Below are positions 14,186-33,413 of a DNA stretch of 64,000 nt, in pieces; positions within the stretch are counted from its first letter, which is position 1, and the number at the start of each line of letters is the position of its first letter. A program made the position numbers and the translations under genes. This stretch comes from Halarcobacter sp. (GTDB lineage Bacteria; Campylobacterota; Campylobacteria; Campylobacterales; Arcobacteraceae): contig CP182352.1 of NCBI GenBank assembly GCA_048571215.1, forward strand, positions 1,120,001-1,184,000, read 5' to 3'. The notes under the pieces were generated by a model. It was not told where the DNA came from and ran no database searches. It saw nothing but the letters and a program-made list of their open reading frames with translations.

Positions 14186-14675
14186 ATGATATAGGGTTGA
14201 CAGATTATTTTTAAATAGGCATAATTACTAGCTTAATCCTGCTCTAAATATTGAAGGTTACATACTGTATTACATGGATTAATAGTTCTGAAGTACTTAT
14301 TGAACAAAAACATATAAAAGATTATGAATATATGGTAAAATTATTTTGATTATTTACTACAGTTTTTTAAAGATGAAAGATATATAAGAATTGAAAACAA
14401 ACCGGTACTATGTATTTATCGAATATATGGATGAATATATTGATTTTTTTATTAACGAAGCTATAACAAATGGATTTGATGAAATTTAAAAATGATAAAT
14501 TAATTATGATATATAAGTTAAATGAATTAGAAGATAAACAATTAGATGTTACTTTAAAATTTGATAAATCTATCGTCAAAGCATTAGATATCAAAAATAA
14601 ACTCTTAAATAGAAAACTTGAATATTCATCTGTTTTAGTTTCTTGTGATATTTTTACTAAAGACGAAATGGAAAC

Positions 14676-15419
14676 ATGCTTGATAAACAAATAAAAATAT
14701 CAATTATTACAATAGTCTTAAATGATAAACAAAATATCGAAGAAACTATACAGTCAGTTGTATCTCAAAATATTGAAATAGAGTATATCGTCATAGATGG
14801 TGCTTCAACTGATGGCACTTTGGATGTGTTACAAAAGCACAAAGATAAAATAGACACTATAATTAGTGAAAAAGATAGCGGTATTTATAAGGCAATGAAT
14901 AAAGCTATTGATATGGCAAATGGTGAGTGGATTTGTTTTATGAATAGTGGAGATATGTTTTATGATTCAAAAGTTTTAAAAAATATATTGCCAAAAATTG
15001 ATGATAGTGTAGATATAGTCTATGGAGATCAAGAAGTAAGATATGCTTCAAAAAAAAAGATAGTTAAAGCTAATATGAGTATCCAAGATATATGGAAGGG
15101 AATGATATTTTCACACCAAAGCTGTTTTGTAAAAAAAGATATTTTACAACAATATAAATTTAATGAATCAAACCGTATAACAGCTGATTACGAGCTTTTT
15201 TATACTCTTTATATAGCAAAGAAAAAATTTAGCTATGAACCGATGATAATAGCAAGTGTAAGTACTGGTGGAGTTTCTGATATAAAAAGAATTGATAGCA
15301 TTGTAAGTAGATGGAAGATAGTCGATAAAAGTTTTGGTGCAAATATCTACTATCTAAAACTAATAATAGGTGAACTGGTAAAACTACCTATCAAGAAAAT
15401 TTTAGGAATAGGTAAATGA
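14676..15419 (+). CDS. Glycosyltransferase family 2 (WcaE-like)
   Basis: ISIITIVLN, YIVIDGASTDGT, SEKDSGIYKAMNKAI, FMNSGD, HQS. Confidence 0.9.
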   Translation: MLDKQIKISIITIVLNDKQNIEETIQSVVSQNIEIEYIVIDGASTDGTLDVLQKHKDKIDTIISEKDSGIYKAMNKAIDMANGEWICFMNSGDMFYDSKVLKNILPKIDDSVDIVYGDQEVRYASKKKIVKANMSIQDIWKGMIFSHQSCFVKKDILQQYKFNESNRITADYELFYTLYIAKKKFSYEPMIIASVSTGGVSDIKRIDSIVSRWKIVDKSFGANIYYLKLIIGELVKLPIKKILGIGK

Positions 15420-15420
15420 T

Positions 15421-16488
15421 ATGAAAATCGTTTATGACAATATTATATACTCTTTACAAAAAGCTGGTGGGATATCTGCTTATTGGAAAGGATTGAGTTC
15501 AAGACTTAAAAACTCTGGTATAGATATAATATTTTATGGCTACCCTAATGACAATATTTTTATGTCATATTTGGATGTTGATTTTAAAAAAGAGTCATCT
15601 ATAAACTATAAAATAAATCGATACCTAGACTTTCAACAAAAGCTTCCTAAAGGCTCTATTTTTCATAGTAGCTACTATCGTATTGCAAATCAAAAAGATG
15701 TTGTGAATATAACTACAGTACATGATTTTACTTATGAGTACTATAGAAGTGACTTAGCAAGACTTATTCATTCTTGGCAGAAATCTCGGGCTATCAATAA
15801 AAGTGATGGAATCATTTGTATATCTGAAAATACAAAAAAAGATCTTTTAAAGTTTTATCCAAATATAAAAGAAGAAAAAATAGAAGTGATTTACAATGGG
15901 GTAGATGATACATTTTGTCAACTTAAAGATCCATCTCAATATTTGAAAATTAGGTACCCTGTACTTTACAATAAAAAATATATCCTTTATGTTGGAAATA
16001 GAAATAGCTACAAAAATTTTGATATTGCGGTTAAAGTTGTAGAACAGATACATAACTGCGTTTTGGTTATTGTTGGAGGAGGAGATATATCTGATAAGGA
16101 AAAAAAGTTATTACAAAAAGAATATTTCCATTACCAAGGTATAAATGCAAAAGATTTAAATATTTTATATAACAATGCATTCTGTCTTTTATACCCATCT
16201 AGTTATGAAGGTTTTGGGATACCAATAGTAGAAGTTATGAGTGCAGGATGTCCTGTAATAAGTACTAATACTTCTTCCATACCAGAAGTTGCTGGTGATG
16301 CTGGATTATTGGTAGATAAAATAGAAGTTGAAGAGTTTATTCGACTCATATTAAAACTAGAAAATAAAAACTATAGAGATGAAATAATCAAAAAAGGGTT
16401 AAATCAAGCAAAAAAGTTTAGCTGGGATAAGTGTTTTGAAGAAACACTTGAATTTTATAAAAAAGTAGTAGGTAAAAAGTTTTCATGA
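15421..16488 (+). CDS. Glycosyltransferase family 4 (GT-B)
   Basis: AGGISAY, TVHD, YPSSYEGFGIPIVE, SSIPEVAG. Confidence 0.92.
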   Translation: MKIVYDNIIYSLQKAGGISAYWKGLSSRLKNSGIDIIFYGYPNDNIFMSYLDVDFKKESSINYKINRYLDFQQKLPKGSIFHSSYYRIANQKDVVNITTVHDFTYEYYRSDLARLIHSWQKSRAINKSDGIICISENTKKDLLKFYPNIKEEKIEVIYNGVDDTFCQLKDPSQYLKIRYPVLYNKKYILYVGNRNSYKNFDIAVKVVEQIHNCVLVIVGGGDISDKEKKLLQKEYFHYQGINAKDLNILYNNAFCLLYPSSYEGFGIPIVEVMSAGCPVISTNTSSIPEVAGDAGLLVDKIEVEEFIRLILKLENKNYRDEIIKKGLNQAKKFSWDKCFEETLEFYKKVVGKKFS

Positions 16489-16697
16489 AAATTCCAATAA
16501 TAACAGTTGTTTTAAATGGTGCCAAGACTATCAGAGGAACCATAGAATCTGTATTGAGCCAAACATATGACAATATTGAATATATTGTTATTGATGAAGA
16601 AAGTATAGATGATACCATGGATATAATTAATGAATATCAAAACAAGATTAGTAAGAGTTGGAAAGAGAAAAAATTGAATGGAGTATATTTTAGGTGA
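16485..16697 (+). pseudogene. Truncated GT2 (N-terminal 70 aa only)
   Basis: IITVVLNGAKTIRGTIESVLSQTYDNIEYIVID..SIDDT, then ends. Confidence 0.75.
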
Positions 16698-17725
16698 AAA
16701 ATATTGTAAAAGTGGTTTTAATAAATATGTGTATTTTTTTCTCAATAATTGGGTTTATTGTTTTATCTCCAATAATAATTTATAAAGGATATAAAAGTTT
16801 AAAAGATTTAATTATACAAGAGAAAACAAATGACAGTTTTTATAAAGAATATAAAAAAGTAAAACAAAAATATCATGATTTTGTAACTTATAAGGATGAA
16901 GAATTTCAAGGTAAAATTATAAATATTGATAAAAATGGGAATAGATTTACTCATGTATCTAAAAATTTTATTGATAATGATTCTAAGTACATATTTTTTG
17001 GAGGATCAATTATTTGGGGGTATGGAGAAAGTGATGAAAAAACTATTCCCTCAATTTATTCTCAAAAAAATAGAGTTTATACTGAAAATTTTGCAGTGAG
17101 TGGATATACTTCAAGACAATCACTAGCAAAATTAATTAACTATTATGTTAAAAACCCAATTTCAACAAAAAAAAGGATAATAATTTTTACTGATGGGGCC
17201 CTTGATTATTATATGAATTGTAGGGATGATGATATGACATTAAAAACAGGGTATAGTGAAAAAATAGTAAATATGTTAAATACAAAAAATCCATTGAGCT
17301 TTGAAATATTATCAAGTCCTAGTTTAGCTTTTTTTAAAGAATTAAAAAATAGATTAGAGAATAAAGAAGAAATATCTTTAAGAAAAGTTTGTTCTAAAGA
17401 AAAGATTAAATTTATTACAACATCTATATTAAGAGTTTGGAGTATTGCAAATCAACTTGCAAAAGCACATGGAGATGAGTTTATAGCAGTGCTTCCACCT
17501 TCAATATTAGATAAAGAAGATAATACTGAAGATTATAAAAAAGAGTATAAAGAATTAAGAAAAAATATTAAAAATTATACAGATATTAACTTTATTGATT
17601 TAAGTAAAATTTTTACAGATAATAAAAATGCATATTTAGATAGTATGCATTATTCATTTGAAGGAAAAAAGATATATGTTAAAGAATTAACAAAAGAAAT
17701 AAAAAAATTGGAAAAAAATAAATGA
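16694..17725 (+). CDS. Membrane-anchored SGNH/GDSL-fold protein
   Basis: N-terminal TM; block I FFGGS..WG, block II FAVSGY, block V DSMH. Confidence 0.8.
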   Translation: MKNIVKVVLINMCIFFSIIGFIVLSPIIIYKGYKSLKDLIIQEKTNDSFYKEYKKVKQKYHDFVTYKDEEFQGKIINIDKNGNRFTHVSKNFIDNDSKYIFFGGSIIWGYGESDEKTIPSIYSQKNRVYTENFAVSGYTSRQSLAKLINYYVKNPISTKKRIIIFTDGALDYYMNCRDDDMTLKTGYSEKIVNMLNTKNPLSFEILSSPSLAFFKELKNRLENKEEISLRKVCSKEKIKFITTSILRVWSIANQLAKAHGDEFIAVLPPSILDKEDNTEDYKKEYKELRKNIKNYTDINFIDLSKIFTDNKNAYLDSMHYSFEGKKIYVKELTKEIKKLEKNK

Positions 17726-18666
17726 AAAATATTTTTATAAATAGTATTATTTTTATTATATCTTTTATTATTATGTTATTTATAATAGAAGGTGTATTAA
17801 GAATTAAAAACTTAGATATGCGTAATTATAATATCGAAATGTGGAAATATACAAAAGAATTAAAAGTTAAAAGTGAGAATCCAAAACTTGGTTTTTATCA
17901 TAAACCATCAAGTGAAGCAATTCTTCAATCTGTAAAAATCCGTACAAATAGCTTTGGATTAAGAGGTAGAGAGATTTCAAAAGAAAGAAGTGTAAATAGA
18001 AGAGTTCTTTTTTTAGGTAGTTCTGCTACACTTGGATGGGGGGTTAAAGAAGAAAATACTATGATTTCACTTTTAAATAAGAGAATGGGTAGTGATGTAG
18101 AAGTTTTAAATGCAGGAGTTGGAAACTATAATAGTGTACGATATATTGAATTATTTTTCACAAAATTAAAAGAATTACATCCTACAGATATTGTTATACA
18201 TTTCTTTTTAAATGATGCAGAAGAACTCCATGTTCCTAAATCAAATTGGTTTTTACAAAATAGTCAATTAGCAGTTGTTACTTGGAACTTAATAAATAAG
18301 TTTGGTAATAATGGTACATTAATAGATTATTATAATAAAATATATGATGAAAATTATATAGGATATATCAATATGAATAATGCATTAGATAAATTAATTA
18401 AATATTGTGAAAAAAAAGATATTAGATTATATTTTACATTAATGCCAGATTTACATTATTTAAATAATACTGAGTTAGTACCATATTATAAAAAAGTAAC
18501 TAATTTAGTAAATAATAAAGGGATTAAATTTTTAGATTTAGGAGCTAAATTTAATAATAATGTAGAGGTAACAAAATATTGGGTTATGCCAAATGATGCA
18601 CATCCAAACGAATTAGCGCATAAAATTATGGCTGATCAAATTTATCCTTTTTTGCGCTTAAAATAA
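17722..18666 (+). CDS. Membrane-anchored SGNH/GDSL-fold protein
   Basis: N-terminal TM; FLGSSATLGWG, NAGVGNY, FLND, DAHPN. Confidence 0.88.
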   Translation: MKNIFINSIIFIISFIIMLFIIEGVLRIKNLDMRNYNIEMWKYTKELKVKSENPKLGFYHKPSSEAILQSVKIRTNSFGLRGREISKERSVNRRVLFLGSSATLGWGVKEENTMISLLNKRMGSDVEVLNAGVGNYNSVRYIELFFTKLKELHPTDIVIHFFLNDAEELHVPKSNWFLQNSQLAVVTWNLINKFGNNGTLIDYYNKIYDENYIGYINMNNALDKLIKYCEKKDIRLYFTLMPDLHYLNNTELVPYYKKVTNLVNNKGIKFLDLGAKFNNNVEVTKYWVMPNDAHPNELAHKIMADQIYPFLRLK

Positions 18667-18669
18667 AAA

Positions 18670-20010
18670 ATGATATTTAGTTCTTTAGACTTTTTAGTTT
18701 TTTTTATTGTTTATACTTTAATTTGGTTTTTAACGCCAAAAAAGTATAAGATAGCAACTATATTAATATTTAGTTTATTCTTTTATGGATATTGGAATTG
18801 GAATTATATTTTATTGCCAATTTTGTTAACATTAGTTGCTTTTATCTTTACTAAAATATTTCAAAATAATAAAAGTAAAACTAATTTAACAATTTCAATT
18901 ATTTTAATTCTCCTACCACTTATTTATTTTAAGTATTTTGATTTTATTTTAAATACAAAATTAATTGATATGCCAATACCTTTAGGTATTTCATTTATAA
19001 CTTTTACTTTAATTTCATATGTAGTTGATGTTTATAAAAATAAATCCCCATATGAAAATAGTTTTTCAATACTTTTATCTTATATTATGTATTTTCCTCA
19101 ATTAATTGCTGGACCTATTTTAAGACCAAATGAACTTATACCTCAATTAAAAGAGTTTATTGATGTAAAAATGAGACTTCGTTTTGTTGCATTTGTAATT
19201 TTTACGATTGGCTTGGCAAAAAAAACTGTTTTTGCTGATCAATTAGCCCATTATGTCGATCCAATATATTTAAATCCTATTGAGGCTAGTTTTGAAGAAT
19301 GGTTGATTACATTTTATGCATTTCCTGTTCAACTTTATTGCGATTTTAGTGGATATACTGATATGGCAATTGGATTAGCTTTATTTTTTGGGGTTAATTT
19401 GCCTTTAAACTTTAATAAACCTTATTTAGTTAAAACAATTCCTGATTTTTGGAGAAATTGGCATATTTCATTATCAACATGGATAAGAGATTATGCTTAT
19501 TTCCCTTTAGGTAAAATACTTAGTAACATGTATCTTAGAACATTGATTGTAATGACATTAGTTGGGTTGTGGCATGGTGCTTCATGGACAATGGTTATTT
19601 TTGGTTTTATACATGGAATACTTGTTGCTTTTTCTAATTTTTTAAGAATAAAGAAAATTAAAAATCCATTGCCTGTTTTTATGCAAATAATTTTAACTTT
19701 TCATATATTTAGTGCAACACTAATATTATTCCGGGCAACAGATTTAGATAATGCACTTGATATGATAAGTGTATTAATTAATTTTGAGAGTTTAAATATC
19801 CAAAGTTTTCAATATTTTTTATACCCTATACTTTTAATAAGTATATTTTTTATATCTCATCCTTTTGATAACATTGAACAGATTAAAGGTTATGCAAATA
19901 AATATAAAAATTTATATATAGGATTATTTTTAGTTTTTTTATGGATATTATCTATAAGTTTGAGTATATCTAACAGCGGAAGTGATAAATTTATATACTT
20001 TGATTTTTAG
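18670..20010 (+). CDS. MBOAT O-acyltransferase (AlgI/DltB/PatA-like)
   Basis: PLGISFITF, FPQLIAGPI, DFSGYTDMA, FWRNWHISLS, GLWHGA; C-terminus FIYFDF. Confidence 0.95.
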   Translation: MIFSSLDFLVFFIVYTLIWFLTPKKYKIATILIFSLFFYGYWNWNYILLPILLTLVAFIFTKIFQNNKSKTNLTISIILILLPLIYFKYFDFILNTKLIDMPIPLGISFITFTLISYVVDVYKNKSPYENSFSILLSYIMYFPQLIAGPILRPNELIPQLKEFIDVKMRLRFVAFVIFTIGLAKKTVFADQLAHYVDPIYLNPIEASFEEWLITFYAFPVQLYCDFSGYTDMAIGLALFFGVNLPLNFNKPYLVKTIPDFWRNWHISLSTWIRDYAYFPLGKILSNMYLRTLIVMTLVGLWHGASWTMVIFGFIHGILVAFSNFLRIKKIKNPLPVFMQIILTFHIFSATLILFRATDLDNALDMISVLINFESLNIQSFQYFLYPILLISIFFISHPFDNIEQIKGYANKYKNLYIGLFLVFLWILSISLSISNSGSDKFIYFDF

Positions 20011-20058
20011 TTTTTTGAAAAGTGTATATTATTAATATTTTGATATAATAAAAGAGGG

Positions 20059-20445
20059 ATGATAATGATTAAAAAAAATGATTTAAAGATTTTTGTATAT
20101 ATATGGGCAATAATTTTCTTAATGATTGGTGTTTATCCTATACTAAAAGAAGAACCCTTACGATATATTTTTATTATAATATCTATAAGTATGTTTATCA
20201 TATCTTTAGTAAATATAAATTTATATATAAAACCATATAATATTTGGATGAAATTTGGTAAAATTATGAATAAAATTTCAACTTTCATTATAATGTTTAT
20301 TTTATTTTATTTTTTATTTACTCCTATATCTTTAATATTGAAAGTGTTTTCAAAAGATTTATTAAATAAAAAAATAGACTCTACTGTATCATCTTATTGG
20401 ATAAAAAGAGAAGAACAACCTCAATCTATGAAAAAACAATTTTAG
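20059..20445 (+). CDS. SxtJ-family membrane protein
   Basis: KPYNIWMKFGKIM..I....ILFYFLFTP..LILK..SKDLL..K.D...SYWI.R....SMKKQF pattern; next to a carbamoyltransferase. Confidence 0.8.
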   Translation: MIMIKKNDLKIFVYIWAIIFLMIGVYPILKEEPLRYIFIIISISMFIISLVNINLYIKPYNIWMKFGKIMNKISTFIIMFILFYFLFTPISLILKVFSKDLLNKKIDSTVSSYWIKREEQPQSMKKQF

Positions 20446-20454
20446 GATAAATAA

Positions 20455-20598
20455 ATGTTAAAAGAACTTTGGGATTTTATTAAAGTAAGAAAAAAATATT
20501 GGTTAGCACCTATTATATTATTGATGTTATTATTAGGGACTATAATTGTATCTGCAACAGGATCTAGTGTTTCTCCATTTGTTTATGCTTTATTTTAA
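20455..20598 (+). CDS. 47-aa SxtK/DUF5989-family membrane peptide (not in the ORF track)
   Basis: MLKELWDFIKVRKKYWLAPIILLMLLLGTIIVSATGSSVSPFVYALF; AGGA RBS upstream; fills the gap between SxtJ and the carbamoyltransferase. Confidence 0.88.
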   Translation: MLKELWDFIKVRKKYWLAPIILLMLLLGTIIVSATGSSVSPFVYALF

Positions 20599-20607
20599 GA
20601 ATAAGCT

Positions 20608-22494
20608 ATGTATATTTTAGGAATTTCAGCATATTACCATGATAGTGCGGCAGTGCTAATAGATGATGAAAATATTATTGCAGCTGTACAAGAAGAAAGA
20701 TTTACGAGAATAAAGCAAGATGAATCTTTTCCTAAAGAATCTATTAAATATTGTTTAGAAGAAGCAAATATTTCTTTAGAAGATATTGATTATATAGCTT
20801 TTTATGATAAACCTTTTATAAAATTTGAGAGATTATTAGAAACCTATCTTAATGAAGCACCTAAAGGCTTCAAATCCTTTTTTAAATCTATGCCTATTTG
20901 GTTAAAAGATAAATTATTTTTAAAAGATACTTTGGCTAATGAATTTAAAGATTTATTAGAAAGTTTGAAACCACAGCTTAAAGATAAAGAATTAAAGTTA
21001 TTTAAAAAAAATATATTAACTAAAATAAGATTTAGTGAACACCATCAAAGTCATGCATCAAGTGCATTTTATCCAAGTAGTTTTGAAAATGCTGCAATAT
21101 TAACAATAGATGGAGTAGGTGAATGGACTACTACATCTTTAGCTTATGGAAATGGAAACAAAATTACATTTTTAAATGAAATTAATTTTCCCCATTCTTT
21201 AGGATTATTATATTCAGCGTTTACTTATTATTTAGGATTTAAAGTAAATAGTGGTGAATATAAAGTTATGGGATTAGCACCATATGGAAAACCAATTTAT
21301 GTAGATATCATAAAAAGTAAATTAATAGATATAAAAGAGGATGGATCCTTTAGACTTGATATGAGTTATTTTAATTATACAACTGGTTTGACAATGACAA
21401 ATAGTAAATTTCATAATCTTTTTGGAGGTAAACCTAGAGAAAAAGAAGGAACCTTAACTCAAAAAGAAATGGATTTGGCAGCTTCAATTCAAGCAATTAC
21501 AGAAGAAATAATGATAAAACTTGCAAAATATGCAAAAGAAATAACAGGTAGCAATAATTTGTGTTTAGCTGGGGGAGTAGCTTTAAACTGTGTTGGTAAT
21601 GGGAAAATATATAAGGAAAAGATTTTTGAAAATATATGGATACAACCAGCCTCTGGTGACGCAGGTGGAGCATTAGGGGCTGCATATTGTTTATATTTTC
21701 AAGAATTTGATAATTTAAGAAAAATAGAAAGTAATAAAATTGATAAAATGCAAGGTTCCTATCTTGGACCTAAATACTCAAATGAATATATAAAAAACTT
21801 TTTAGATAGTGAAGGTGCAAAATACGAATTTATAGAAAATGAAGAATCATTATTATCAATAGTTGCACAAGAACTTGTCAACGGAAAAGTTGTTGGTTGG
21901 CATCAAGGTAGAATGGAATATGGACCTAGATCTTTAGGAAATAGAAGTATTATAGGAGATCCTCAAAATATTGATATGCAAACTACAATGAATATGAAGA
22001 TTAAGTTTAGAGAAAGCTTTAGACCATTTGCACCATCGGTAATAAAAGAAAAAGTAGATAAATGGTTTGATATAAAAGATGAATCTCCATATATGTTATT
22101 GGTTAGTGATGTTAGAGATGATAAACGATTATCATTATGTGATACGGAAAAAAATTTAGAAGGTATAGAAAAACTAAAACAAAAACGAAGTGAAATACCT
22201 GCAGTAACACATATTGATTATTCTGCAAGAGTTCAAACAGTTGATAAAAATACCAATAAAAGATATTATCATTTATTAAGTAAGTTTGATAGTTTAACCT
22301 CTTGTCCTATTTTGGTTAATACATCATTTAATGTACGAGGTGAGCCTATTGTCTGTTCTCCTAAAGATAGTTATATATGTTTTATGCGTACTGGAATTGA
22401 TATATTAGTTTTGGAAGACTTTATATTATATAAAACTGAACAAAATGCCAATGATTATGATGATAACTGGAAAGAGACTTTTGAGCTTGATTAG
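20608..22494 (+). CDS. O-carbamoyltransferase (NodU/CmcH/SxtI family)
   Basis: ILGISAYYHDSAA, QEERFTRIK, EHHQSHA, GEYKVMGLAPYG, AGGVALNC, EYGPRSLGNRS, FRPFAP, NTSFNVRGEPIV. Confidence 0.97.
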   Translation: MYILGISAYYHDSAAVLIDDENIIAAVQEERFTRIKQDESFPKESIKYCLEEANISLEDIDYIAFYDKPFIKFERLLETYLNEAPKGFKSFFKSMPIWLKDKLFLKDTLANEFKDLLESLKPQLKDKELKLFKKNILTKIRFSEHHQSHASSAFYPSSFENAAILTIDGVGEWTTTSLAYGNGNKITFLNEINFPHSLGLLYSAFTYYLGFKVNSGEYKVMGLAPYGKPIYVDIIKSKLIDIKEDGSFRLDMSYFNYTTGLTMTNSKFHNLFGGKPREKEGTLTQKEMDLAASIQAITEEIMIKLAKYAKEITGSNNLCLAGGVALNCVGNGKIYKEKIFENIWIQPASGDAGGALGAAYCLYFQEFDNLRKIESNKIDKMQGSYLGPKYSNEYIKNFLDSEGAKYEFIENEESLLSIVAQELVNGKVVGWHQGRMEYGPRSLGNRSIIGDPQNIDMQTTMNMKIKFRESFRPFAPSVIKEKVDKWFDIKDESPYMLLVSDVRDDKRLSLCDTEKNLEGIEKLKQKRSEIPAVTHIDYSARVQTVDKNTNKRYYHLLSKFDSLTSCPILVNTSFNVRGEPIVCSPKDSYICFMRTGIDILVLEDFILYKTEQNANDYDDNWKETFELD

Positions 22495-22516
22495 ACTTAA
22501 ATTAAGAAAATAGATC

Positions 22517-23389
22517 ATGAAAATTATAATTACAGGAGCTAGCGGTTTTTTAGGAAGTTATCTTTTAAAATCATTTGTAAATAGTAGGCATGAAGTAATA
22601 GCTTTAAAAAGAATTACTTCAACTACTTACAGAATTGAAAGTTACTTAGAAAAAGTAACATTGTATGATATTGATAAAGTTAATTTAGAAGATATTTTTA
22701 AAAATCATAAAATAGATATAGTTATAAATACAGTTACAAACTATGGAAGAAAAGATTCAAAAGTATCTTCAATAGTAGACACAAATTTAATCTTTGGATT
22801 AAAGCTTTTAGAAGAGTGTGTAAACAATAATGTAAAAGCATTTATTAATACAGATACATCACTTGATAGAAATATCAATGCGTATGCTCTTTCTAAATCT
22901 CAATTAGTAGATTGGATGAAGTTTTTATCTAACAAAAATACTAAAATAATAAATATAAAAATAGAGTATATGTATGGACCTCTTGATGATGAAAATAAAT
23001 TTATTTATTGGTTAATTAATCAATTAAAACAAAATGTAAAAAAAATAGATTTAACATCGGGTATTCAAAAAAGAGATTTTATTTACATTGATGATATTGT
23101 AAGTGCATATGAAATTATTGTTAAAAACATAGATTCATTTCCAAATGATGAGGAGTTTGAACTTGGAAGTGGTAATTCAATAGAAGTTAAAAAATTTATA
23201 GAATTAATAGTTGAAGAATTACAAACAAAAATTAAAATAGATACGAATTTAAACTTTGGTGCAATTTCATATAGAAATAATGAGAATATGGAAATGAAAG
23301 CAAATATAAAAAAATTAAATGAACTTGGATGGAAATCTGAAGTTTCTTTAAGAAATGGAATAAAAAATATAATTGACAAGAAGAATTAA
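22517..23389 (+). CDS. NAD-dependent sugar reductase/epimerase, probable CDP-3,6-dideoxyhexose synthase (paratose/abequose synthase-like)
   Basis: TGASGFLG, YALSK, QKRDFIYIDD; next to rfbH. Confidence 0.75.
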   Translation: MKIIITGASGFLGSYLLKSFVNSRHEVIALKRITSTTYRIESYLEKVTLYDIDKVNLEDIFKNHKIDIVINTVTNYGRKDSKVSSIVDTNLIFGLKLLEECVNNNVKAFINTDTSLDRNINAYALSKSQLVDWMKFLSNKNTKIINIKIEYMYGPLDDENKFIYWLINQLKQNVKKIDLTSGIQKRDFIYIDDIVSAYEIIVKNIDSFPNDEEFELGSGNSIEVKKFIELIVEELQTKIKIDTNLNFGAISYRNNENMEMKANIKKLNELGWKSEVSLRNGIKNIIDKKN

Positions 23390-23390
23390 T

Positions 23391-24722
23391 ATGATAAAAC
23401 AAGAACAATTAAAGCAAGAGATATTACAAAAAACAAAAGAGTATTATGAATTAGTACATAAGCCACAACAAACAAAAAAGTTTGTCGAAGGTCAAAGTAG
23501 AGTTAATTATGCTGGTCGAGTATTTGATGAAACTGAGATGCAATATCTTGTGGATAGTTCATTGGATTTTTGGTTAACATTTGGAGACTATTCTAAAAAA
23601 TTTGAAAAAGGTTTAGCAAAATATTTAGGAGTTAGATATGTATTTTTAGTTAATTCTGGAAGTTCTGCTAATCTACTTGCTTTTTATGCTTTAACTTCAC
23701 CACTTCTAAAAGAGAGACAAATAAAAAGAGGTGATGAAGTAATAACTGTTGCAGCTGGTTTCCCTACTACTGTAGCTCCTATTGTTCAATATGGAGCAGT
23801 TCCTGTATTTTTAGATATGGAATTAGAGTGTGCAAATATAGATGTATCTAAATTAGAATCAGCACTTAGTCCTAAAACAAAAGCTATCATGATTGCACAT
23901 ACTTTAGGAAATCCATTTGATTTAAGAGCTGTGAAAGACTTCTGTGATAAACATAATCTTTGGCTTATTGAAGATAACTGTGATGCTTTAGGTTCTTTAT
24001 ATGAAGGGAAACCAACTGGAACTTGGGGAGATATTGGTACAAGTTCATTTTATCCTCCTCATCACATGACAATGGGTGAAGGTGGAGCTACATATACAAG
24101 TAATCCTCTACTTAAAAAAATCATGCTTTCAATGAGAGATTGGGGAAGAGATTGTTGGTGTGAAAGTGGAATAGATAATACTTGTGGATGTAGATTTTCG
24201 CAAACATTTGGAACTCTACCAAAAGGATATGACCATAAATATGTTTATTCTCACTTTGGTTTTAACTTAAAAGTATCAGATATGCAAGCAGCGGTAGGTG
24301 TAGCTCAACTTGAAAAGTTTCCTACATTTGTAGAAAAAAGAAAAGAAAACCAAAAGAAACTATATGATGGATTAAAAGATTTAGAACAACTTCAATTAGT
24401 TGAAACTCAACCAAACTCAGATCCAAGTTGGTTTGGATTTATGATGACATTAACAGATAAAGCAAAATTTACAAGAAATGAACTTGTAGAATTTTTAGAA
24501 GCGAATAAAATCCAAACAAGAAATTTATTTGCTGGAAATATGACAAGACATCCTATGTTTGATTCATTAGAACTAAATAAAAATTATAGAATAGTAGGTG
24601 ATTTAACTGTAACTGATAAGATTATGAATGATAGTTTTTGGATTGGATTATATCCAGGAATGGATGATGATGCTATTAATTATATGATTAAAAAAATTAG
24701 AGAGTTTGTAGAAAGTAAATAA
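23391..24722 (+). CDS. rfbH: CDP-4-keto-6-deoxy-D-glucose 3-dehydrase (RfbH/DdhC)
   Basis: VNSGSSANLLA, EDNCDALG, SFYPPHHMTMGEGG, RDWGRDCWC..DNTC, YDHKYVYSH; start taken at the ATG of MIKQEQ. Confidence 0.95.
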   Translation: MIKQEQLKQEILQKTKEYYELVHKPQQTKKFVEGQSRVNYAGRVFDETEMQYLVDSSLDFWLTFGDYSKKFEKGLAKYLGVRYVFLVNSGSSANLLAFYALTSPLLKERQIKRGDEVITVAAGFPTTVAPIVQYGAVPVFLDMELECANIDVSKLESALSPKTKAIMIAHTLGNPFDLRAVKDFCDKHNLWLIEDNCDALGSLYEGKPTGTWGDIGTSSFYPPHHMTMGEGGATYTSNPLLKKIMLSMRDWGRDCWCESGIDNTCGCRFSQTFGTLPKGYDHKYVYSHFGFNLKVSDMQAAVGVAQLEKFPTFVEKRKENQKKLYDGLKDLEQLQLVETQPNSDPSWFGFMMTLTDKAKFTRNELVEFLEANKIQTRNLFAGNMTRHPMFDSLELNKNYRIVGDLTVTDKIMNDSFWIGLYPGMDDDAINYMIKKIREFVESK

Positions 24723-24732
24723 GGGTAATAAA

Positions 24733-25641
24733 ATGGCTTTAAAAAATAAACCAAATTTTTTGATAGTCGGTGCTGCAAAATGCGGAACGACTTCTCTTTT
24801 TCACTATCTTAATAAACATCCTGATATTTATATACCTGAGGTGAAAGAGTGTAGATTTTTTTCTCAACTTCCAAAAAACTTCAATGGCTTAGGTGCAGAA
24901 TCTTTTGTAAATACTGGAATAACTGATGAAAAGGAATATTTCAGTTTATTTGATAATCAAAATCAGAATTGTGGAGATATTTCAAATGATTATTTATATT
25001 ATTACGAAGAATCAATAAAAAATATTAAAAAATACTTAGATGATGATGTGAAAATAATAATACTAAGAAATCCTGTAGATAGAGCATATTCTAATTATAT
25101 GCATGCTGTTCGTGATGGCTGGGAAAATCTTACTTTTGAAGATGCTATAATAGAAGAAGAAAAGAGAATTAATGATAATTGGGGATGGCCTTATTATTAT
25201 ATAAAAGTTGGATTTTATTTTGAACAAGTTAAAGCTTATCTTGATAGTTTTAAAAATGTAAAAGTTTATTTATTTGATGATTTAAAAAATAAAAATGAGT
25301 TTTTAAATGATTTGTATGAATTTTTAGAAGTTGAACAAATAGAAAGCTTAGAAGACGACAAAGAGTATAATGTATCTGGATACCCTAAGAATAAGTTTAT
25401 TCATAATTTTTTGAATAAAGATAGTAAATTAAAAAGTTTTATAAAGCCAATTGTGAAATTAATAATTTCTAAAGAAAAAAGGCAACAAGTAATTCAAAAT
25501 CTAAAAAATAACAATTTAGAAAAAAGAAAAATGTTAAAAAATTCTAGAATTAACTTAATAGATATTTATAAAGATGATATTAATAATTTAAGTGGTTTAA
25601 TTAATAAAGATTTAAGTCATTGGATAAAACATGAAGTGTAA
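24733..25641 (+). CDS. PAPS-dependent sulfotransferase
   Basis: 5'-PSB motif GAAKCGTTSL; 3'-PB motif LRNPVDRAYSNY. Confidence 0.92.
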   Translation: MALKNKPNFLIVGAAKCGTTSLFHYLNKHPDIYIPEVKECRFFSQLPKNFNGLGAESFVNTGITDEKEYFSLFDNQNQNCGDISNDYLYYYEESIKNIKKYLDDDVKIIILRNPVDRAYSNYMHAVRDGWENLTFEDAIIEEEKRINDNWGWPYYYIKVGFYFEQVKAYLDSFKNVKVYLFDDLKNKNEFLNDLYEFLEVEQIESLEDDKEYNVSGYPKNKFIHNFLNKDSKLKSFIKPIVKLIISKEKRQQVIQNLKNNNLEKRKMLKNSRINLIDIYKDDINNLSGLINKDLSHWIKHEV

Positions 25642-26395
25642 AGTTTGTGAAACAAATAATGATGTATTATTTACTGCAAAAGTTTTAAAAAAGTATGATG
25701 TTAAATATTACCATTGTAAAAGTTGTGGTTTTCTGCAAACAGAAGAACCTTATTGGTTAGAGGAAGCTTATAATGAATCAATAAATATTTCTGATACAGG
25801 TATAATGAATAGAAATTTATTTTTATCTCAAAGTGTAACTAATATTATAAATGTATTTTTTAACAAAAATGATAAATTTTTGGATTATGCAGGAGGATAT
25901 GGAATTTTTGTAAGACTTATGAGAGATATTGGTTTTGATTTTTATTGGAATGATAAATATAGTAAAAATTTAGTAGCTAGAAAATTTGAATTTAACGAAA
26001 AAGACAGTTATAGTCTACTTACTTCTTTTGAATCATTTGAACATTTCGATAAACCTATTCTTGAGATAGAGGATATGCTGAAGATATCTAAAAGTATATT
26101 ATTCTCAACTGAATTATGTGAAGATAACCCTCCTAAACCAGATGACTGGAGATACTATGGATTAAATCATGGTCAACATATTTCATTTTATAGTATAAAA
26201 ACACTAAAATATATTGCAAAAAAGTATAATTTAAATTTATACTCTTATAGAAGCTCATTACATTTATTAACTGATAAAAAAATCAACAATTACTTTTTTT
26301 CATTGATTTTAAAATTAAATAGATTAGGTTTATTTTATTTTTTAAGAAAATTGAATAATTCTAAAACAATAAAGGATTGGGAATTACTTAGATGA
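25631..26395 (+). CDS. Class I SAM-dependent methyltransferase with N-terminal Cys cluster
   Basis: CKVC..CKSCG; FLDYAGGYG; SFESFEH; GQHISFY. Confidence 0.88.
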   Translation: MKCKVCETNNDVLFTAKVLKKYDVKYYHCKSCGFLQTEEPYWLEEAYNESINISDTGIMNRNLFLSQSVTNIINVFFNKNDKFLDYAGGYGIFVRLMRDIGFDFYWNDKYSKNLVARKFEFNEKDSYSLLTSFESFEHFDKPILEIEDMLKISKSILFSTELCEDNPPKPDDWRYYGLNHGQHISFYSIKTLKYIAKKYNLNLYSYRSSLHLLTDKKINNYFFSLILKLNRLGLFYFLRKLNNSKTIKDWELLR

Positions 26396-27056
26396 TTTCA
26401 AAAATCAAAATACTTACAAGGTTTATTATTTATTTATAGATTTATTTATAAAACCATCAAAGAATATTAAGCCAAAATCTATTTTGATTGTACGTTTAGA
26501 TGCAATTGGAGATTATGTACTTTTTAGATACTATATAGAAATAGTTAAGAAAAGTGAAAAATATAAGGATTATTCAATTACACTTCTTGGGAATATATCT
26601 TGGAAAAGTATTAGCAACGAGCTAGATAAAGAAATTATAGATGAGTTTTTATGGTTAGATAGAAATAAATTTATAAAAGACTTTAAATATAGATATACTA
26701 AGCTTCAAGAAATCACGTCTAAAGAGTATGAAGTATTACTAAATCCAGTATATAGTAGAGAATTTTTTCTTGGCGATAGTATATCAAAATTAGTTTGTGC
26801 TAAAGAAAAAATTGCAAGTAAAGGAGATTTGTCAAATATAGAAAAGTGGCAAAAAGACTTAACTGATAATTATTTTACTAACTTAATAGAGGCAAAAAAT
26901 GATGTATTATTTGAGTTTGATAGAAATAAAGAATTTTTTGAAAATTTATTTGATATAAATTTAGATATAATAAAACCATATATTGAATTAAAAGATAAAA
27001 ATTTAGGATTTAGTCTTCCAAAAAACTATGTTGTATTTTTTATAGGAGCCAGTGCA
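26392..27056 (+). pseudogene. Glycosyltransferase family 9 pseudogene (5' frameshift, 3' truncated)
   Basis: MISKIKILTRFIIYL* then frameshift to IVRLDAIGDY; paralogue of 34499-35650; similarity ends at FIGAS. Confidence 0.85.
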
Positions 27057-27355
27057 TTTCAACTGTTTACTCCTTTGTATCTCCATATAGAGAATCTTGA
27101 AAAGCTATTAGAGAAATGGTTAAAAATAATATAGTTATTTACCTAAAAACTCATATAGAAACTTGTAAGAGTAGAGATTATAAAGGTGTATATGAAAAAG
27201 CACTAAAAGGTGAACTTCAAAACTTTACAGGTATAAATGATATATATGAAGAACCACAACATGCAGAAATAGTTATAGATACAACAAAAACATCAATTGA
27301 TGAAGCAGTTGAAAGAATAGTAAAATTTGTAAAAAAAGAGTTTGTAAGTAGATGA
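27057..27355 (+). pseudogene. cysC: Adenylylsulfate kinase 3' fragment
   Basis: SFVSPYRES*KAIREMVK...CKSRDYKGVYEKALKGELQNFTGINDIYEEP; P-loop half missing. Confidence 0.85.
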
Positions 27356-28656
27356 TAAATAAAATTAATACTTTTAAAAATAATGAAGGTGCCATGAAAT
27401 ACTTTAAAAATACAACATGGCTTATTATTGAAAAAATATTTCGTTTGGTTGTAGGTTTTTTAGTTGGAGTTTGGGTTGCAAGATATTTAGGACCTGAACA
27501 ATTTGGTCTATTTTCGTATGCGCAAAGTTTTGTAGGACTTTTTATTGCCATTTCTTCATTTGGACTTGATAATATTGTAGTACGAGAGTTATTAAAAGAT
27601 GGAGGTAATAAAGATGAAATTGTTACAACAGTCTTTATACTAAAACTTATTGGGGCCTTTTTTGTATTGATTTTTCTTGCTATTACTGTTAATTTTACAT
27701 CTAATGATGATTATACTAATGTATTAATATTTATAATTGCATCTGCAATTATATTTCAATCTTTTAATGTAATAGATTTTTATTTTCAAAGTAAAGTTTT
27801 AAGTAAATATATAGTTTTTGCAAATATAATTTCTCTTTTAATTAGTAGTCTTACAAAAATATTATTTATTTTCTATGAATTTCCCTTAATATATTTTGCA
27901 GGAGTAGTACTTTTTGATAGTATGATATTAGCTTTAGGATATATCTATTTTTATATTAAACATAATAAATTTATTAAAATTAATAATCTTAAATTTAATA
28001 AAAATACAGCTATTTTACTTCTTAAAGATAGTTGGCCTTTAATGCTTAGTGGTTTAATTATATCAATTTATATGAAAATAGATCAAGTAATGATAAAAGA
28101 AATACTAGGAAATGAGGCAGTTGGACAATATTCAGCAGCAGTAAGACTTAGCGAAACATGGTATTTTATACCTTCTGTAATAGCTGCCTCTTTATTTCCT
28201 GCTATCGTAAGTGCTAAAAAACAAAATGAAGAATTTTACATTGCAAGACTTCAAAAACTTTATAATTTTATGGTGTGGCTTGCTATTCCTATAACTTTAT
28301 TCATAACATTTTCAGCTGATTGGCTTATTACTATTCTTTATGGACATGTATATAGAGAAGCGGGAGGTGTTTTAGTAATTCATATTTGGACAAGTGTATT
28401 CGTATTTATAGGTGTAGTTTTTGCTAAATATTTAACTATAGAAAATTGGACAAAAAAATCATTTTACAGGACATTGTATGGTGCAATTATTAATATAATA
28501 CTAAATTATATATTAATCCCTATATATGGCATTTATGGTGCAGCTATTGCGACATTAATTGCCCAAATAGTCACTAATTATTTATATGATATTTTTGATA
28601 AAGACTTACACAAAAGTTTTTATATGAAAACTAAAAGTTTATTGTTAATAAGTTAA
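27352..28656 (+). CDS. wzx: Wzx-type polysaccharide flippase
   Basis: ARYLGPEQFG, FGLD.IVVREL, YMKIDQVMI, VGQYSAAVRL, LIP.YGIYGAAIAT; many TMs. Confidence 0.92.
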   Translation: MINKINTFKNNEGAMKYFKNTTWLIIEKIFRLVVGFLVGVWVARYLGPEQFGLFSYAQSFVGLFIAISSFGLDNIVVRELLKDGGNKDEIVTTVFILKLIGAFFVLIFLAITVNFTSNDDYTNVLIFIIASAIIFQSFNVIDFYFQSKVLSKYIVFANIISLLISSLTKILFIFYEFPLIYFAGVVLFDSMILALGYIYFYIKHNKFIKINNLKFNKNTAILLLKDSWPLMLSGLIISIYMKIDQVMIKEILGNEAVGQYSAAVRLSETWYFIPSVIAASLFPAIVSAKKQNEEFYIARLQKLYNFMVWLAIPITLFITFSADWLITILYGHVYREAGGVLVIHIWTSVFVFIGVVFAKYLTIENWTKKSFYRTLYGAIINIILNYILIPIYGIYGAAIATLIAQIVTNYLYDIFDKDLHKSFYMKTKSLLLIS

Positions 28657-28679
28657 ACATAGATAGAAAAAGGGTAATA

Positions 28680-29681
28680 ATGATTGTAAGTATATGTATA
28701 CCAACACTAAATAGATCTAAATATTTAGAAATAGCATTAAAATCAATATTTTCATTGAAACATAATCAAGATAATTTTCAAATATGTATATCAAATAATA
28801 ATTCAGATGAAGATTATACAAATATTGAAAATTTAATAACTAAGAATAGTAAAGAATGGAAAATAAAATATAAAAAACATGATAAAAGATTAGAGTTAGA
28901 TAATAATATACAATATGTAACTTCTATGGCAGAGGGGGAATATGTATACTATTTAGGAGATGATGATTTATTTATTACAGAAGATTTAATAAAATTATTG
29001 AATTTACTTCAAAAAGAAAAACCAGATTTATTAGTTTTTAATTCAAATGTTATAAATAAAGATGGAGAAATAATTTCTATTTGTAATAATTTTGAATTAA
29101 AAAAATATACCAATGCTTTTGACGCATTTAAAGATTTGCAAACAAAATGTACATTTGGTTCTATATTAGTAAAAAGAGTGCATTTAGATCTTGAAGAGTT
29201 TAAAAGATATTATGGTTCATCACATGCATATGGATATGTATATTGGATAAAGTTTTTGAATGAAGATAAAAAATACAATATAGTTGTACCAGACTTCCCA
29301 TGTTCATGCATAAGAGCTGCAGAGAAGAATTATAATTTTATTAAAGTTTGGTATAGAGATATACCATTTGGATTATCTATTTATTTTAGATATCTTGAAG
29401 CACCAGAAAATAAATTATATGTCTACAATGTATTAAAAAAAATCAAAAAGTATATTTTTAGTGTGAAGTTTATTGCACGAGAATTATATAATGGCGCTAA
29501 ACGAAATGATTTTTATGTTATAAATCCAGTTTTTACAAATTCTATTAGATTTAATTTAAATTATTTAATTGCATTTTTTATTGTAAAGGTTAAGATTTAT
29601 ACATTTTTAAAAAAGATTAAAATAAAGGTAAAAAATGAAAGTTGTATTACTAGCAGGTGGATTAGGAACAAGAATAAGTGA
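28680..29681 (+). CDS. Glycosyltransferase family 2 (possible dideoxyhexose transferase)
   Basis: SICIPTLNRSKYL, ISNNNS.ED, YLGDDD. Confidence 0.85.
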   Translation: MIVSICIPTLNRSKYLEIALKSIFSLKHNQDNFQICISNNNSDEDYTNIENLITKNSKEWKIKYKKHDKRLELDNNIQYVTSMAEGEYVYYLGDDDLFITEDLIKLLNLLQKEKPDLLVFNSNVINKDGEIISICNNFELKKYTNAFDAFKDLQTKCTFGSILVKRVHLDLEEFKRYYGSSHAYGYVYWIKFLNEDKKYNIVVPDFPCSCIRAAEKNYNFIKVWYRDIPFGLSIYFRYLEAPENKLYVYNVLKKIKKYIFSVKFIARELYNGAKRNDFYVINPVFTNSIRFNLNYLIAFFIVKVKIYTFLKKIKIKVKNESCITSRWIRNKNK

Positions 29682-30408: not shown

Positions 30409-31508
30409 TAGAAAATTTATTTGGTGGAATATATAAAAATAAAACAGTATTAGTTACTGGACATACAGGATTTAAAGGTTCATGGCTTGTATATTGGCTT
30501 ACTCAAATGGGAGCAAATGTAATAGGGTATTCTCTTGAAGCAGCAACTAATCCTAATCATATTTCACTTTTAGATATTGATATAATATCTGTAATAGGTG
30601 ATATAAGAGATTTAGGTAAACTTGATGAAACTTTCAAACAATATAAACCAGATATTGTTTTTCATCTAGCAGCCCAACCTTTGGTGAGACTTTCTTATGA
30701 AAACCCTATAGAAACATATGAAACAAATGTTATAGGAACTCTCAAAGTTTTTGAAGCATGTAGAAAACACAATGTAAAAGCTATAGTAAATATTACAAGT
30801 GATAAAGCTTATGAAAATAAAGAATGGATTTGGGGATATAGAGAAGATGATCCAATGGGTGGATATGATCCATATAGCTCATCTAAAGGGTGCGCAGATC
30901 TTTTAGCAAGTTCTTATAGAAACTCTTATTTCAATTTAAATGACTACAGATCTAAACACAATACACTATTAGCTACTTGTAGAGCAGGAAATGTTATAGG
31001 TGGTGGTGATTGGGCAAAAGACAGACTTATAACTGACATTATGGTTTCCGTTTCACAAAATAAAAAAGTAAATATACGAAATCCAAAAGCTACAAGACCT
31101 TGGGAACATGTACTTGAACCACTTAGTGGATATTTACATATTGGACAAAAACTACTAGAAGAAAAAAAAGAGTTTGCAGAAGCTTGGAACTTTGGACCAA
31201 GTGATGAAGGAAGTATTACAGTTGAAGAAGTAGTTCAAAATGTTAAAAAACATTGGGATAAAATAGATTATGAAATAAATCGTGACCCAAATCAACTTCA
31301 TGAAGCAAATCTTTTAAAGCTAGACTGTTCTAAAGTACATATTCAATTAAAATGGAAAGATGTTTGGGACAGTGATAAGACATTTGAAAAAACTGTAAAG
31401 TGGTATAAAACTTATTATGAAGAAAACAAAAAAGTTTTAACTGAGAGTGATTTGGAGTCTTATATACAAGATGCAAAGGCAAAAAAAATAGAATGGGCGA
31501 TTGTCTGA
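30372..31508 (+). CDS. rfbG: CDP-glucose 4,6-dehydratase
   Basis: TGHTGFKGSWL, HLAAQPLVR, TSDKAYEN, DPYSSSK, RAGNVIGGGDW, RPWEHVLEPL. Confidence 0.96.
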   Translation: MEWKQCPMESMVIENLFGGIYKNKTVLVTGHTGFKGSWLVYWLTQMGANVIGYSLEAATNPNHISLLDIDIISVIGDIRDLGKLDETFKQYKPDIVFHLAAQPLVRLSYENPIETYETNVIGTLKVFEACRKHNVKAIVNITSDKAYENKEWIWGYREDDPMGGYDPYSSSKGCADLLASSYRNSYFNLNDYRSKHNTLLATCRAGNVIGGGDWAKDRLITDIMVSVSQNKKVNIRNPKATRPWEHVLEPLSGYLHIGQKLLEEKKEFAEAWNFGPSDEGSITVEEVVQNVKKHWDKIDYEINRDPNQLHEANLLKLDCSKVHIQLKWKDVWDSDKTFEKTVKWYKTYYEENKKVLTESDLESYIQDAKAKKIEWAIV

Positions 31509-32581
31509 TGAGTAAAAAATTTAAAAGTTTAACTATAATAATTACAAATCTTGCGATTTTCTTTTTATTAATTGGGATAATTATTAGTTTTCCTATTTTT
31601 ACATATAATTTTTATAAATTATTTACTAGCGAAGATAAAAAGTCTAAAAACTATAATTATCAAAACCCTAAAATAATAAAAGAAACAGATGGTTTAAAAC
31701 AAAAATTTTCAGATACTGAAGGTCTTATATATGTAAAATATACTGGAAAATATGTGAATATAGATAAAATTGGAAATCGTAAGACTGATTTATCTGAGGA
31801 AATTTTGTTAGACCAAGCAGAATATTTTTTCTTTGGTCCATCAGTGATTTGGGGGTATGGAGAGGAAGATAAAAAAACTATTCCATCAATTTTTTCTCAA
31901 ACAAATAATGTTTTTGTTAAAAACTTTTCTTCAAATGGATACACTAGTCATTATTCATTGAGTAAATTAATTAATTTTTATATAGATAATCCTAAATCAG
32001 ATAAAAAAAGAGTTATAATATTTAATGATGGTCCCCTAGATTATTTTAGTAATTGTAAAAATAATGATTTTATATTAAAATCAAACATATCAGATGATAT
32101 AAATAGTTTGATAACATCAAAGACTAATACTAAAAACTTTGAATTTAGTTTTAAATATATTATATATCCATTTAAAAGTCTAATTAATAAAATGATAAAT
32201 AAAGTTGAAATGTTTTTGTAGTAAAGAAAAAATTAATTTCATAACTGATGGTATTATTAAAAACTGGCAGTTTGCAAAAAGATTGTTGAGTCTCACAATG
32301 ATATTTTCATATCAGTTTTAATACCTGTGTCATATCTTGATGGAAATAGTTCCGATATAAAAATTGATAAATTTACATTTGATGAAAAAACTCAAAATGC
32401 AATTAAAATTGGATATGGACAAATAAAAACAAAAATGAAAACTATGAATATGAATTTTGTTAATCTTGATGAGATATTTATTGATAGACCAAATTCTTAC
32501 TTAGATAAATTACATTATTCATATAATGGTAAAATTATTTTTGTCAATGAATTAAATAAAAAAATAAAAAATATTAAGTAA
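31508..32581 (+). pseudogene. SGNH-fold protein pseudogene, diverged paralogue of 16694-17725
   Basis: FFGPSVIWGYGEED.KTIPSIFSQ and YLDKLHYS lie in different frames; frameshifts near 32210-32290. Confidence 0.8.
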
Positions 32582-32590
32582 AGGTAAAAT

Positions 32591-33349
32591 ATGAGAAACT
32601 TATTAGATAACGTACTAGTATCTTTATTGTCTGTTACAATTATGTTATTTATAATAGAAGGTGTATAAAGAATTAAAAACTCAGATATGCGTAATTACAA
32701 TATCGAAATGTGGAAATATACAAAAGAATTAAAAGTTAAAAGTGAGAATCCAAAACTTGGTTTTTATCATAAACCATCAAGTGAATCAATTCTTCAATCT
32801 GTAAAAATTCGTACAAATAGCTTTGGATTAAGAGGTAAAGAGATTTTAAAAGAAAAAAGTGTAAATAGAAGAGTTCTTTTTTTAGGTAGTTCTGCTACAC
32901 TTGGATGGGGTGTTAAAGAAGAAAATACTATGATTTCACTTTTAAATAAGAGAATGGTTAGTGATGTTAGAGATGATAAACGATTATCATTATGTGATAC
33001 GGAAAAAAATTTAGAAGGTATAGAAAAACTAAAACAAAAACGAAGTGAAATACCTGCAGTAACACATATTGATTATTCTGCAAGAGTTCAAACAGTTGAT
33101 AAAAATACCAATAAAAGATATTATCATTTATTAAGTAAGTTTGATAGTTTAACCTCTTGTCCTATTTTGGTTAATACATCATTTAATGTACGAGGTGAGC
33201 CTATTGTCTGTTCTCCTAAAGATAGTTATATATGTTTTATGCGTACTGGAATTGATATATTAGTTTTGGAAGATTTTATATTATATAAAACTGAACAAGA
33301 TGCCAATGATTATGATGATAACTGGAAAGAGACTTTTGAGCTTGATTAG
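32591..33349 (+). pseudogene. Chimeric pseudogene: SGNH 5' part fused in frame to carbamoyltransferase 3' part
   Basis: Premature TAA near 32666; 32639-32957 copies 17770-18088 and 32955-33413 copies 22100-22558. Confidence 0.9.
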
Positions 33350-33413
33350 ACTTAAATTAAGAAAATAGATCATGAAAATTATAATTACAGGAGCTAGCGG
33401 TTTTTTAGGAAGT
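32639..33413 (+). repeat. Near-identical, internally deleted duplicate of 17770-22558
   Basis: Direct sequence comparison; only scattered substitutions; includes the first codons of the epimerase gene. Confidence 0.92.

Follow-up and report, generated by a model that had tools for sequence, protein, structure and literature searches.

We analyzed a 64,000-nucleotide stretch of the Halarcobacter sp. genome (assembly GCA_048571215.1, contig CP182352.1, positions 1,120,001 to 1,184,000; here called the window) that carries a unit of six genes encoding two SGNH proteins (SGNH1 and SGNH2), an MBOAT, SxtJ, the small DUF5989 peptide SxtK, and a carbamoyltransferase. By analogy with known acyl-transfer systems, the six genes likely encode two tyrosine-shuttle relays that run in parallel and would decorate one extracytoplasmic acceptor. 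For the central element of this reading, that SxtK is a carbamoyl-tyrosine carrier supplying SGNH1 alongside an ordinary acyl arm, we put the chances at somewhat better than even. A preliminary description of this DNA had noted six packed, co-oriented genes in a glycan island, and the coordinates, intact open reading frames (ORFs), and Pfam names all agree with it. It had also proposed that the whole unit relays a carbamoyl group across the membrane to an SGNH protein. That relay receives comparative support here from the tyrosine-shuttle motif, co-distribution, and membrane anchors, but the MBOAT falls outside its route. Neither the tyrosine tail shared by SxtK and the MBOAT nor the decayed second copy of the cassette (31493-33413) figured in that description.

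The acyl-shuttle hexapeptide FXYXXF is described, in the available text of one study, as being present either on the separate microprotein DltX or as a fusion at the end of other MBOATs (PMC12148441). It occurs twice in the window, as FVYALF in SxtK and FIYFDF in the MBOAT. Across the genome, such an ending was found in 8 of 10,552 six-frame ORFs, and 4 of the 8 were three MBOATs and SxtK. To avoid circularity, SxtK homologues were collected with a tail-blind profile from which the last eight columns had been removed. Tyr was present at position -4 in 142/144 unique homologues (82/84 among those held out), the two exceptions being a fragment at a contig edge and a tail shortened by one residue. 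The 77 SxtK genes of the fetched loci, the window's included, all have Tyr(-4) and Phe(-1), as do all 117 representatives whose end is the motif (33 of 150 representatives, with extended tails, were excluded from this count). SxtK consists of a basic N terminus, one hydrophobic helix, and a tail in which Tyr44 is near-invariant. The median number of Lys/Arg residues was 5 before the helix and 0 in the last 14 residues (61 sequences), a bias across the helix that suggests an N-in, C-out orientation. Fusions of SxtJ to SxtK, suspected among matches of 141 to 207 residues, were rejected: no SxtJ match was found in 150, and the 7 inspected resembled mis-called starts. Two SxtK copies per locus were seen in SAR11-type genomes (L038, L041, L051, and L079), and diverged SxtK-like peptides (20 to 38 bits) keeping the F-x-Y-x-x-F end were seen at six loci (L210, L218, L221, L230, L232, and L253), some with a short SxtJ.

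The carbamoyltransferase of the window has both domains and the conserved NodU/CmcH/TobZ motifs intact. SxtK-linked carbamoyltransferases form one clade, with a single outlier (L248), and carry an aromatic amphipathic segment at residues 66 to 109 (median of 9 aromatics versus 3 in other clades). SxtJ is predicted to fold into three helices (residues 6 to 30, 36 to 51, and 53 to 96; pLDDT [predicted local distance difference test] of 89.5). The third is 44 residues long; since both the loop preceding it and the C-terminal tail are basic, it may be kinked or re-entrant. A fold search with SxtJ was uninformative (best Z of 5.8; generic helical hairpins). A natural carbamoyltransferase-SxtJ fusion (L130) indicates, from its sequence, that the SxtJ N terminus lies inside. 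We infer that SxtJ is both an anchor for the carbamoyltransferase and a conduit for the SxtK tail.

Related arrangements were observed elsewhere. Three loci of family f18 (L082, L083, and L086; 10 genomes of this family are above the cut-off) have a four-gene operon without an MBOAT. In 3 of the 4 f18 loci examined, G9 to G11 tracts break the 5' end of the carbamoyltransferase gene, which by analogy with phase-variable surface genes would fit a switchable surface trait; a 76-base run at L085 was set aside, as it sits at a contig end. At L097 (8345-11548), an unanchored SGNH forms a fusion with a degenerate carbamoyltransferase; an intact carbamoyltransferase and SxtJ lie next to it, and no SxtK was found in that genome. 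The idea that this fusion is trans-membrane was discarded, since the apparent helix is the first strand of the carbamoyltransferase. The Halarcobacter genome itself has a second carbamoyltransferase, of a different clade and without SxtJ or SxtK, at other loci (L088:6804-11637 and L089:7788-9533), where two tandem MBOAT-partner pairs with FLYFNF tails also lie. In a plasmid collection, 182 records matched the carbamoyltransferase at E ≤ 1e-150, 130 from Ralstonia and 29 from Sinorhizobium (one context was read).

Neighborhoods were examined for the 80 closest carbamoyltransferases, and scoring was confined to the 60 loci with 1.5 kb of sequence on either side. SxtJ and SxtK were present at 57; among these 57, an SGNH lay within 1.5 kb in 42 and an MBOAT in 2. 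For contrast, 251 Pseudomonadota genomes were drawn, 89 of them with a carbamoyltransferase, and 40 high-scoring and 40 lower-scoring loci were taken from ~130 matches. The high-scoring loci had SxtK in 38, SxtJ in 34 (one or the other in 39), SGNH in 14, and MBOAT in 1, whereas local profiles found none of the four at the lower-scoring loci. Among 66 neighbors of the latter, Pfam identified a single GDSL, which lies on the opposite strand. Neighbor counts are rough in GC-rich loci, where shadow frames were picked as ORFs.

Co-distribution extended beyond adjacent genes. Because PF13472 alone detected SGNHs in just 2 of 5 small genomes, a local SGNH profile was used. With E ≤ 1e-14, a threshold set after the list had been seen, a cassette-type SGNH was found elsewhere in 22/24 SxtK-positive genomes without an adjacent one versus 1/40 genomes lacking the clade, SxtK having been searched in 1 of the 40. 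SxtK is rare among the kin of this strain, found in 1/41 relatives, 5/184 family genomes, and, above the cut-off, 11/301 phylum genomes (each count includes this genome). All six genes are found together again at L170 and L171, where their order is permuted, and at L078, where it is identical, so their grouping is not due to chance. At L170 (4286-14400) and L171 the order is SxtJ-SxtK-carbamoyltransferase-SGNH1-SGNH2-MBOAT, and the unit immediately follows carB (carbamoyl-phosphate synthase) and a YrdC-like gene. Sinorhizobium meliloti 1021 carries an MBOAT-free set (SM_b20469-20472, encoding in this order SGNH, SxtJ, SxtK, and the carbamoyltransferase). SM_b20472 (L182:20001-21830) carries the label arcB2 and has been placed among the genes of arginine catabolism (PMC7268258); its sequence assigns it to the NodU family, within the SxtJ/SxtK-linked clade. 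S. meliloti transposon sequencing scores for the four genes (0.007 to 0.10) resemble that of an unrelated neighbor (0.017) and were not used.

The MBOAT, whose closest named relatives are from Arcobacteraceae, has an invariant His302 and Tyr443 (5/5 aligned sequences), the latter in its fused FXYXXF tail. Relatives of SGNH2 were accompanied by an MBOAT in 55 of the 60 metagenomic loci having 600 bp downstream. Of the SGNH2 loci, 21 have 2.5 kb of flanking sequence on either side; among these, SxtJ, SxtK, or the carbamoyltransferase was present in 16 and a second SGNH in all 21. The three genomes of the family with this MBOAT subtype all have the full six genes. Thus, the six-gene unit recurs, and the MBOAT-SGNH2 pair usually adjoins the carbamoyl arm. 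The tie is one-sided: a PF03062 match was absent from 15 of 35 hand-picked SxtK-positive genomes, including three represented by single closed or near-whole contigs (G730, G732, and G541), the first of which has a locus with SxtJ, two SxtK genes, and SGNHs. From these sequence comparisons, we read the unit as a carbamoyl arm that forms its core and an acyl arm that is optional. Because the MBOAT has its own tyrosine tail, pairs with SGNH2, and is absent from these 15 SxtK-positive genomes, it is dispensable for the carbamoyl arm rather than its conduit. Its place in the carbamoyl route, as originally suggested, is therefore withdrawn. The MBOAT belongs instead to a separate acyl branch, which the preliminary description had raised as a possible acetylation branch.

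Both SGNH proteins have a single N-terminal hydrophobic helix, found in 82/84 cassette SGNHs, together with Ser, Asp, and His blocks, and they are homologous to each other (hhalign, 99.1%). SGNH2 is linked to the MBOAT, anchored, and equipped with Ser, Asp, and His plus the oxyanion Asn, as a partner of a PatA/AlgI-type enzyme requires. Since SGNH2 pairs with the MBOAT, SGNH1 is placed in the carbamoyl arm by elimination, and by analogy we infer that it is the final carbamoyltransferase. The predicted SGNH1 structure (pLDDT of 86.5) is closest among solved folds to CgnD (PDB 8a2n; VIA-align Z of 27.0, root-mean-square deviation of 3.4, 255 aligned residues). The next best fold scored a Z of 17.5, and OatA (Z of 12.6) and PatB (Z of 12.4) were level with many esterases. 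In the portion of the crocagin study available, CgnD hydrolyzes the leader peptide very slowly and shows undetectable peptide binding, and its cluster is the sole crocagin-like cluster with a carbamoyltransferase (PMC10070186). This likeness cuts both ways, tying the SGNH1 subfamily to carbamoylation by way of an enzyme that is soluble and hydrolytic. The Halarcobacter genome carries a lone SGNH1 paralogue (28% identity; L087:4523-10108) with PqqD and asparagine-synthase-like genes as neighbors, and this paralogue could draw on the same SxtK carrier.

The proposed carbamoyl arm would start with the cytoplasmic carbamoyltransferase producing carbamoyl-AMP, a reaction established for TobZ-type enzymes. 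With its amphipathic segment and SxtJ holding it at the membrane, the enzyme would carbamoylate Tyr44 of SxtK. The uncharged SxtK tail would then reach the outer face, probably via SxtJ, which is the weakest step. There, by analogy with DltD and PatB, Ser105 of SGNH1 would accept the carbamoyl group and hand it to an acceptor hydroxyl. Carbamoyl-tyrosine is a plausible donor because serine hydrolases react with aryl carbamates to give a carbamoylated active serine, and hydrolysis of that adduct is slow. In the acyl arm, the MBOAT would self-acylate Tyr443 of its own tail and SGNH2 would pass the acyl group on; a self-acylated Tyr tail and SGNH transfer are reported for PatAB in the text available (PMC12148441). 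By comparison with Dlt, crossing appears to be the hard step: Dlt has an MBOAT tunnel, whereas the carbamoyl arm would have to manage with SxtJ and an uncharged tail. At this locus, the acceptor is probably a surface glycan, because the neighboring genes are glycan genes. The glycan acceptor named in the preliminary description is a probable one for this island; the cassette is also found away from glycan genes and in small-molecule clusters, and stand-alone carbamoyltransferases too sit in lipopolysaccharide (LPS) loci. In its most general form, the proposal is that SxtI-J-K-L cassettes are a widespread MBOAT-free exporter of carbamoyl-tyrosine on a 47-residue peptide, that interchangeable SGNHs, often encoded elsewhere, choose the acceptor, that a dedicated MBOAT-SGNH2 subfamily decorates that target with a second acyl group, and that SxtL-like proteins and CgnD are carbamoyltransferases, not hydrolases. 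We hold this tentatively, at slightly less than an even chance.

Several observations weigh against this interpretation. The entire SxtK tail is conserved, so its Tyr could be structural. Predictions put the Tyr on the outer side of the membrane and the enzyme on the inner side, and none of the solved relatives of SxtJ provides a channel. The oxyanion Asn of block III is missing from SGNH1, the crocagin gene table, in the text available, has no SxtJ or SxtK, and CgnD is soluble and hydrolytic (PMC10070186). SxtL is described as a decarbamoylase in the accessible part of one saxitoxin study (PMC2679770); we count in favor that, as far as the text available from another goes, sxtL was lost in L. 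wollei together with an intact sxtI (PMC3037375). No SGNH lay within the scored distance at 15 of the 57 close loci and 26 of the 40 high-scoring Pseudomonadota loci. A glycosyltransferase or uridine diphosphate-sugar dehydrogenase was an immediate neighbor in just 5 of these 40 (with rough ORF calling), and there are no glycan genes near the unit at L170 and L171. The genomes behind the co-distribution are related to each other, and the SGNH profile was trained on SxtK-linked proteins. Finally, individual genomes break the pattern, with SxtK but no cassette SGNH (G491), the reverse (G352), or a clade carbamoyltransferase without SxtK (G492 and G540).

The foremost alternative, which we consider unlikely, is that the carbamoyltransferase acts directly on an inner-face lipid-linked or soluble acceptor in the manner of WapO or NodU, with SxtJ and SxtK tethering or regulating it and the SGNH removing or editing carbamoyl groups outside. 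Such direct transfer requires no membrane crossing, agrees with the published roles of SxtI/J/K and SxtL, and is in keeping with the membrane-docking segment of the enzyme and with CgnD being a hydrolase. However, it leaves the terminal FXYXXF of 142/144 homologues unexplained. In addition, the 40 other carbamoyltransferases, many of them near LPS or Nod-type genes, do without nearby SxtJ or SxtK, and SGNH2, to which SGNH1 is related, has a Tyr-tailed MBOAT as its partner. It is improbable, in our view, that SxtK is the carrier and an SGNH the final transferase but that the acceptor here is a lipid, a protein, or an exported small molecule, or that no true crossing occurs. The presence of the same genes in the suomilide (ORF16-20) and saxitoxin clusters, the L170/L171 loci and many SAR11 loci among housekeeping genes, and the unanchored L097 fusion in a genome with no SxtK found all point that way; yet both copies in the window sit among glycan genes, and nearly all cassette SGNHs are anchored. 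Very improbable is a single six-gene line in which the MBOAT is the carbamoyl channel, as DltB is for D-alanine, for although this subtype accompanies SxtK in 3/3 family genomes and most SGNH2 loci, it has a Tyr tail of its own that DltB lacks, 15/35 SxtK-positive genomes do without it, and SxtJ is retained where it is present.

If the carbamoyl-tyrosine relay is correct, the tyrosine-shuttle principle would extend from thioester-fed MBOATs to an adenylate-forming cytoplasmic enzyme in an MBOAT-free setting, and SxtJ, SxtK, and SxtL would gain a testable role. Overlooked surface O-carbamoyl groups would be predicted in SAR11, Prochlorococcus, rhizobia, and Campylobacterota. Of the 80 Pseudomonadota loci examined, the top 40 had SxtK-clade carbamoyltransferases, and a model organism, S. 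meliloti 1021, is among the carriers of the MBOAT-free set.

Table 1. Genes of the cassette and remains of its second copy (positions in the window)
Feature	Coordinates	Strand	Characteristics
SGNH1	16694..17725	+	PF13472 (1e-7); N-terminally anchored SGNH protein; S105, D316, H319
SGNH2	17722..18666	+	PF13472 (6e-7, under curated cut-off); anchored; S101, N164, D292, H294
MBOAT, AlgI/PatA-type	18670..20010	+	PF03062 (4.5e-24); His302; C-terminal FIYFDF at 19990-20007
SxtJ	20059..20445	+	PF19588 (8e-7); membrane protein, basic C-tail
SxtK/DUF5989	20455..20598	+	PF19451 (3.6e-22); 47 residues; C-terminal FVYALF at 20578-20595
Carbamoyltransferase, NodU/CmcH/TobZ-family	20608..22494	+	Carbam_trans_N (1e-106), Carbam_trans_C (4e-71)
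SGNH1 paralogue, diverged	31493..32581	+	Decayed second copy, in pieces; 41% identity
Second-cassette deletion scar	32592..33413	+	SGNH2 5' part (with stop) joined to carbamoyltransferase 3' end

All six ORFs are intact and in one orientation, with successive spacings of -4, 3, 48, 9, and 9 bp (Table 1). Neighboring genes in the window encode GT2, GT4, cytidine diphosphate (CDP)-dideoxyhexose functions, a sulfotransferase, Wzx, and GT9, and the G+C content of the cassette is 24.3% versus 28.5% genome-wide. A promoter scan gave 46 sites versus 52.8 expected. Family scans of 31 + 26 window proteins named no other sxt gene, no targeted genome-wide search having been made. The decayed copy sits 10 kb downstream of the intact cassette. 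Its scar junction at 32955 shows a 13-base microhomology (12/13 alike), and the MBOAT, SxtJ, and SxtK were lost. Direct repeats of 459 bp with 99.6% identity (22100-22558 and 32955-33413) bracket the CDP-dideoxyhexose/wzx block. A contig from a second study covers 16662-30662 with 66 differences. Pieces of the decayed copy are also present in that study, with more indels; the scar junction was not bridged among the second-study contig pieces listed. In run X1, summed contig depth was ~50 from 17755 on and ≤8 upstream of it (14500-17750), possibly reflecting a strain with a different left flank. A truncated GT2 (Pfam) is among the pieces at 16485-16697, 26484-27355, and 35706-36821, and the others there we take to be a GT9-like fragment, an adenylyl-sulfate-kinase-like fragment, and transposase pieces. 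These fragments mark the island as a patchwork.

The gene families and their linkage are already in print. The suomilide cluster has MBOAT, carbamoyltransferase, SxtJ, SxtK, and GDSL genes consecutively (PMC8609519, in the text available; further sources, likewise available in part, are PMC10157211 and PMC13122637), and the available portions of the saxitoxin reports describe the same families in sxt clusters (PMC2684587, PMC2679770, and PMC3037375), one giving SxtJ and SxtK as of unknown function (PMC2679770). Families and linkage are thus the same in sxtI-J-K-L and suomilide ORF16-20; here, in contrast, they lie in a glycan island with two SGNHs. No paper describing SxtK/DUF5989 as a Tyr shuttle was found by a search that did not reach most subscription journals or the DltX paper. 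Stand-alone O-carbamoyltransferases (WapO, NodU/NolO, TobZ, NovN, and GdmN) share the fold and conserved motifs but belong to other clades, with 0/40 having SxtJ, SxtK, or SGNH neighbors and with fewer aromatics in residues 66 to 109; WapO is the putative enzyme for the LPS-core carbamoyl group in the text available (PMC8005017). CgnD of crocagin, the nearest solved fold to SGNH1, differs as a slow hydrolase whose gene table has no SxtJ or SxtK. The MBOAT of the window, with its catalytic His, fused FIYFDF, and adjoining SGNH2, resembles PatA-PatB and AlgI-AlgJX, from which its subfamily differs in being usually tied to a carbamoyl arm. Closest in principle is DltB-DltX-DltD, which, in the available text, likewise combines a single-pass microprotein ending in FXYXXF with an anchored SGNH (PMC12148441). 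Unlike Dlt, the carbamoyl arm needs no MBOAT or DltC, a carbamoyltransferase serves as its donor enzyme, Dlt has nothing that corresponds to SxtJ, and the hosts are Gram-negative; nor does SxtK share the dependence of DltX on a tail-less MBOAT (DltB) charging from the DltC thioester. By analogy, then, the relay would work like Dlt and Pat, while the MBOAT requirement places it outside Dlt itself.

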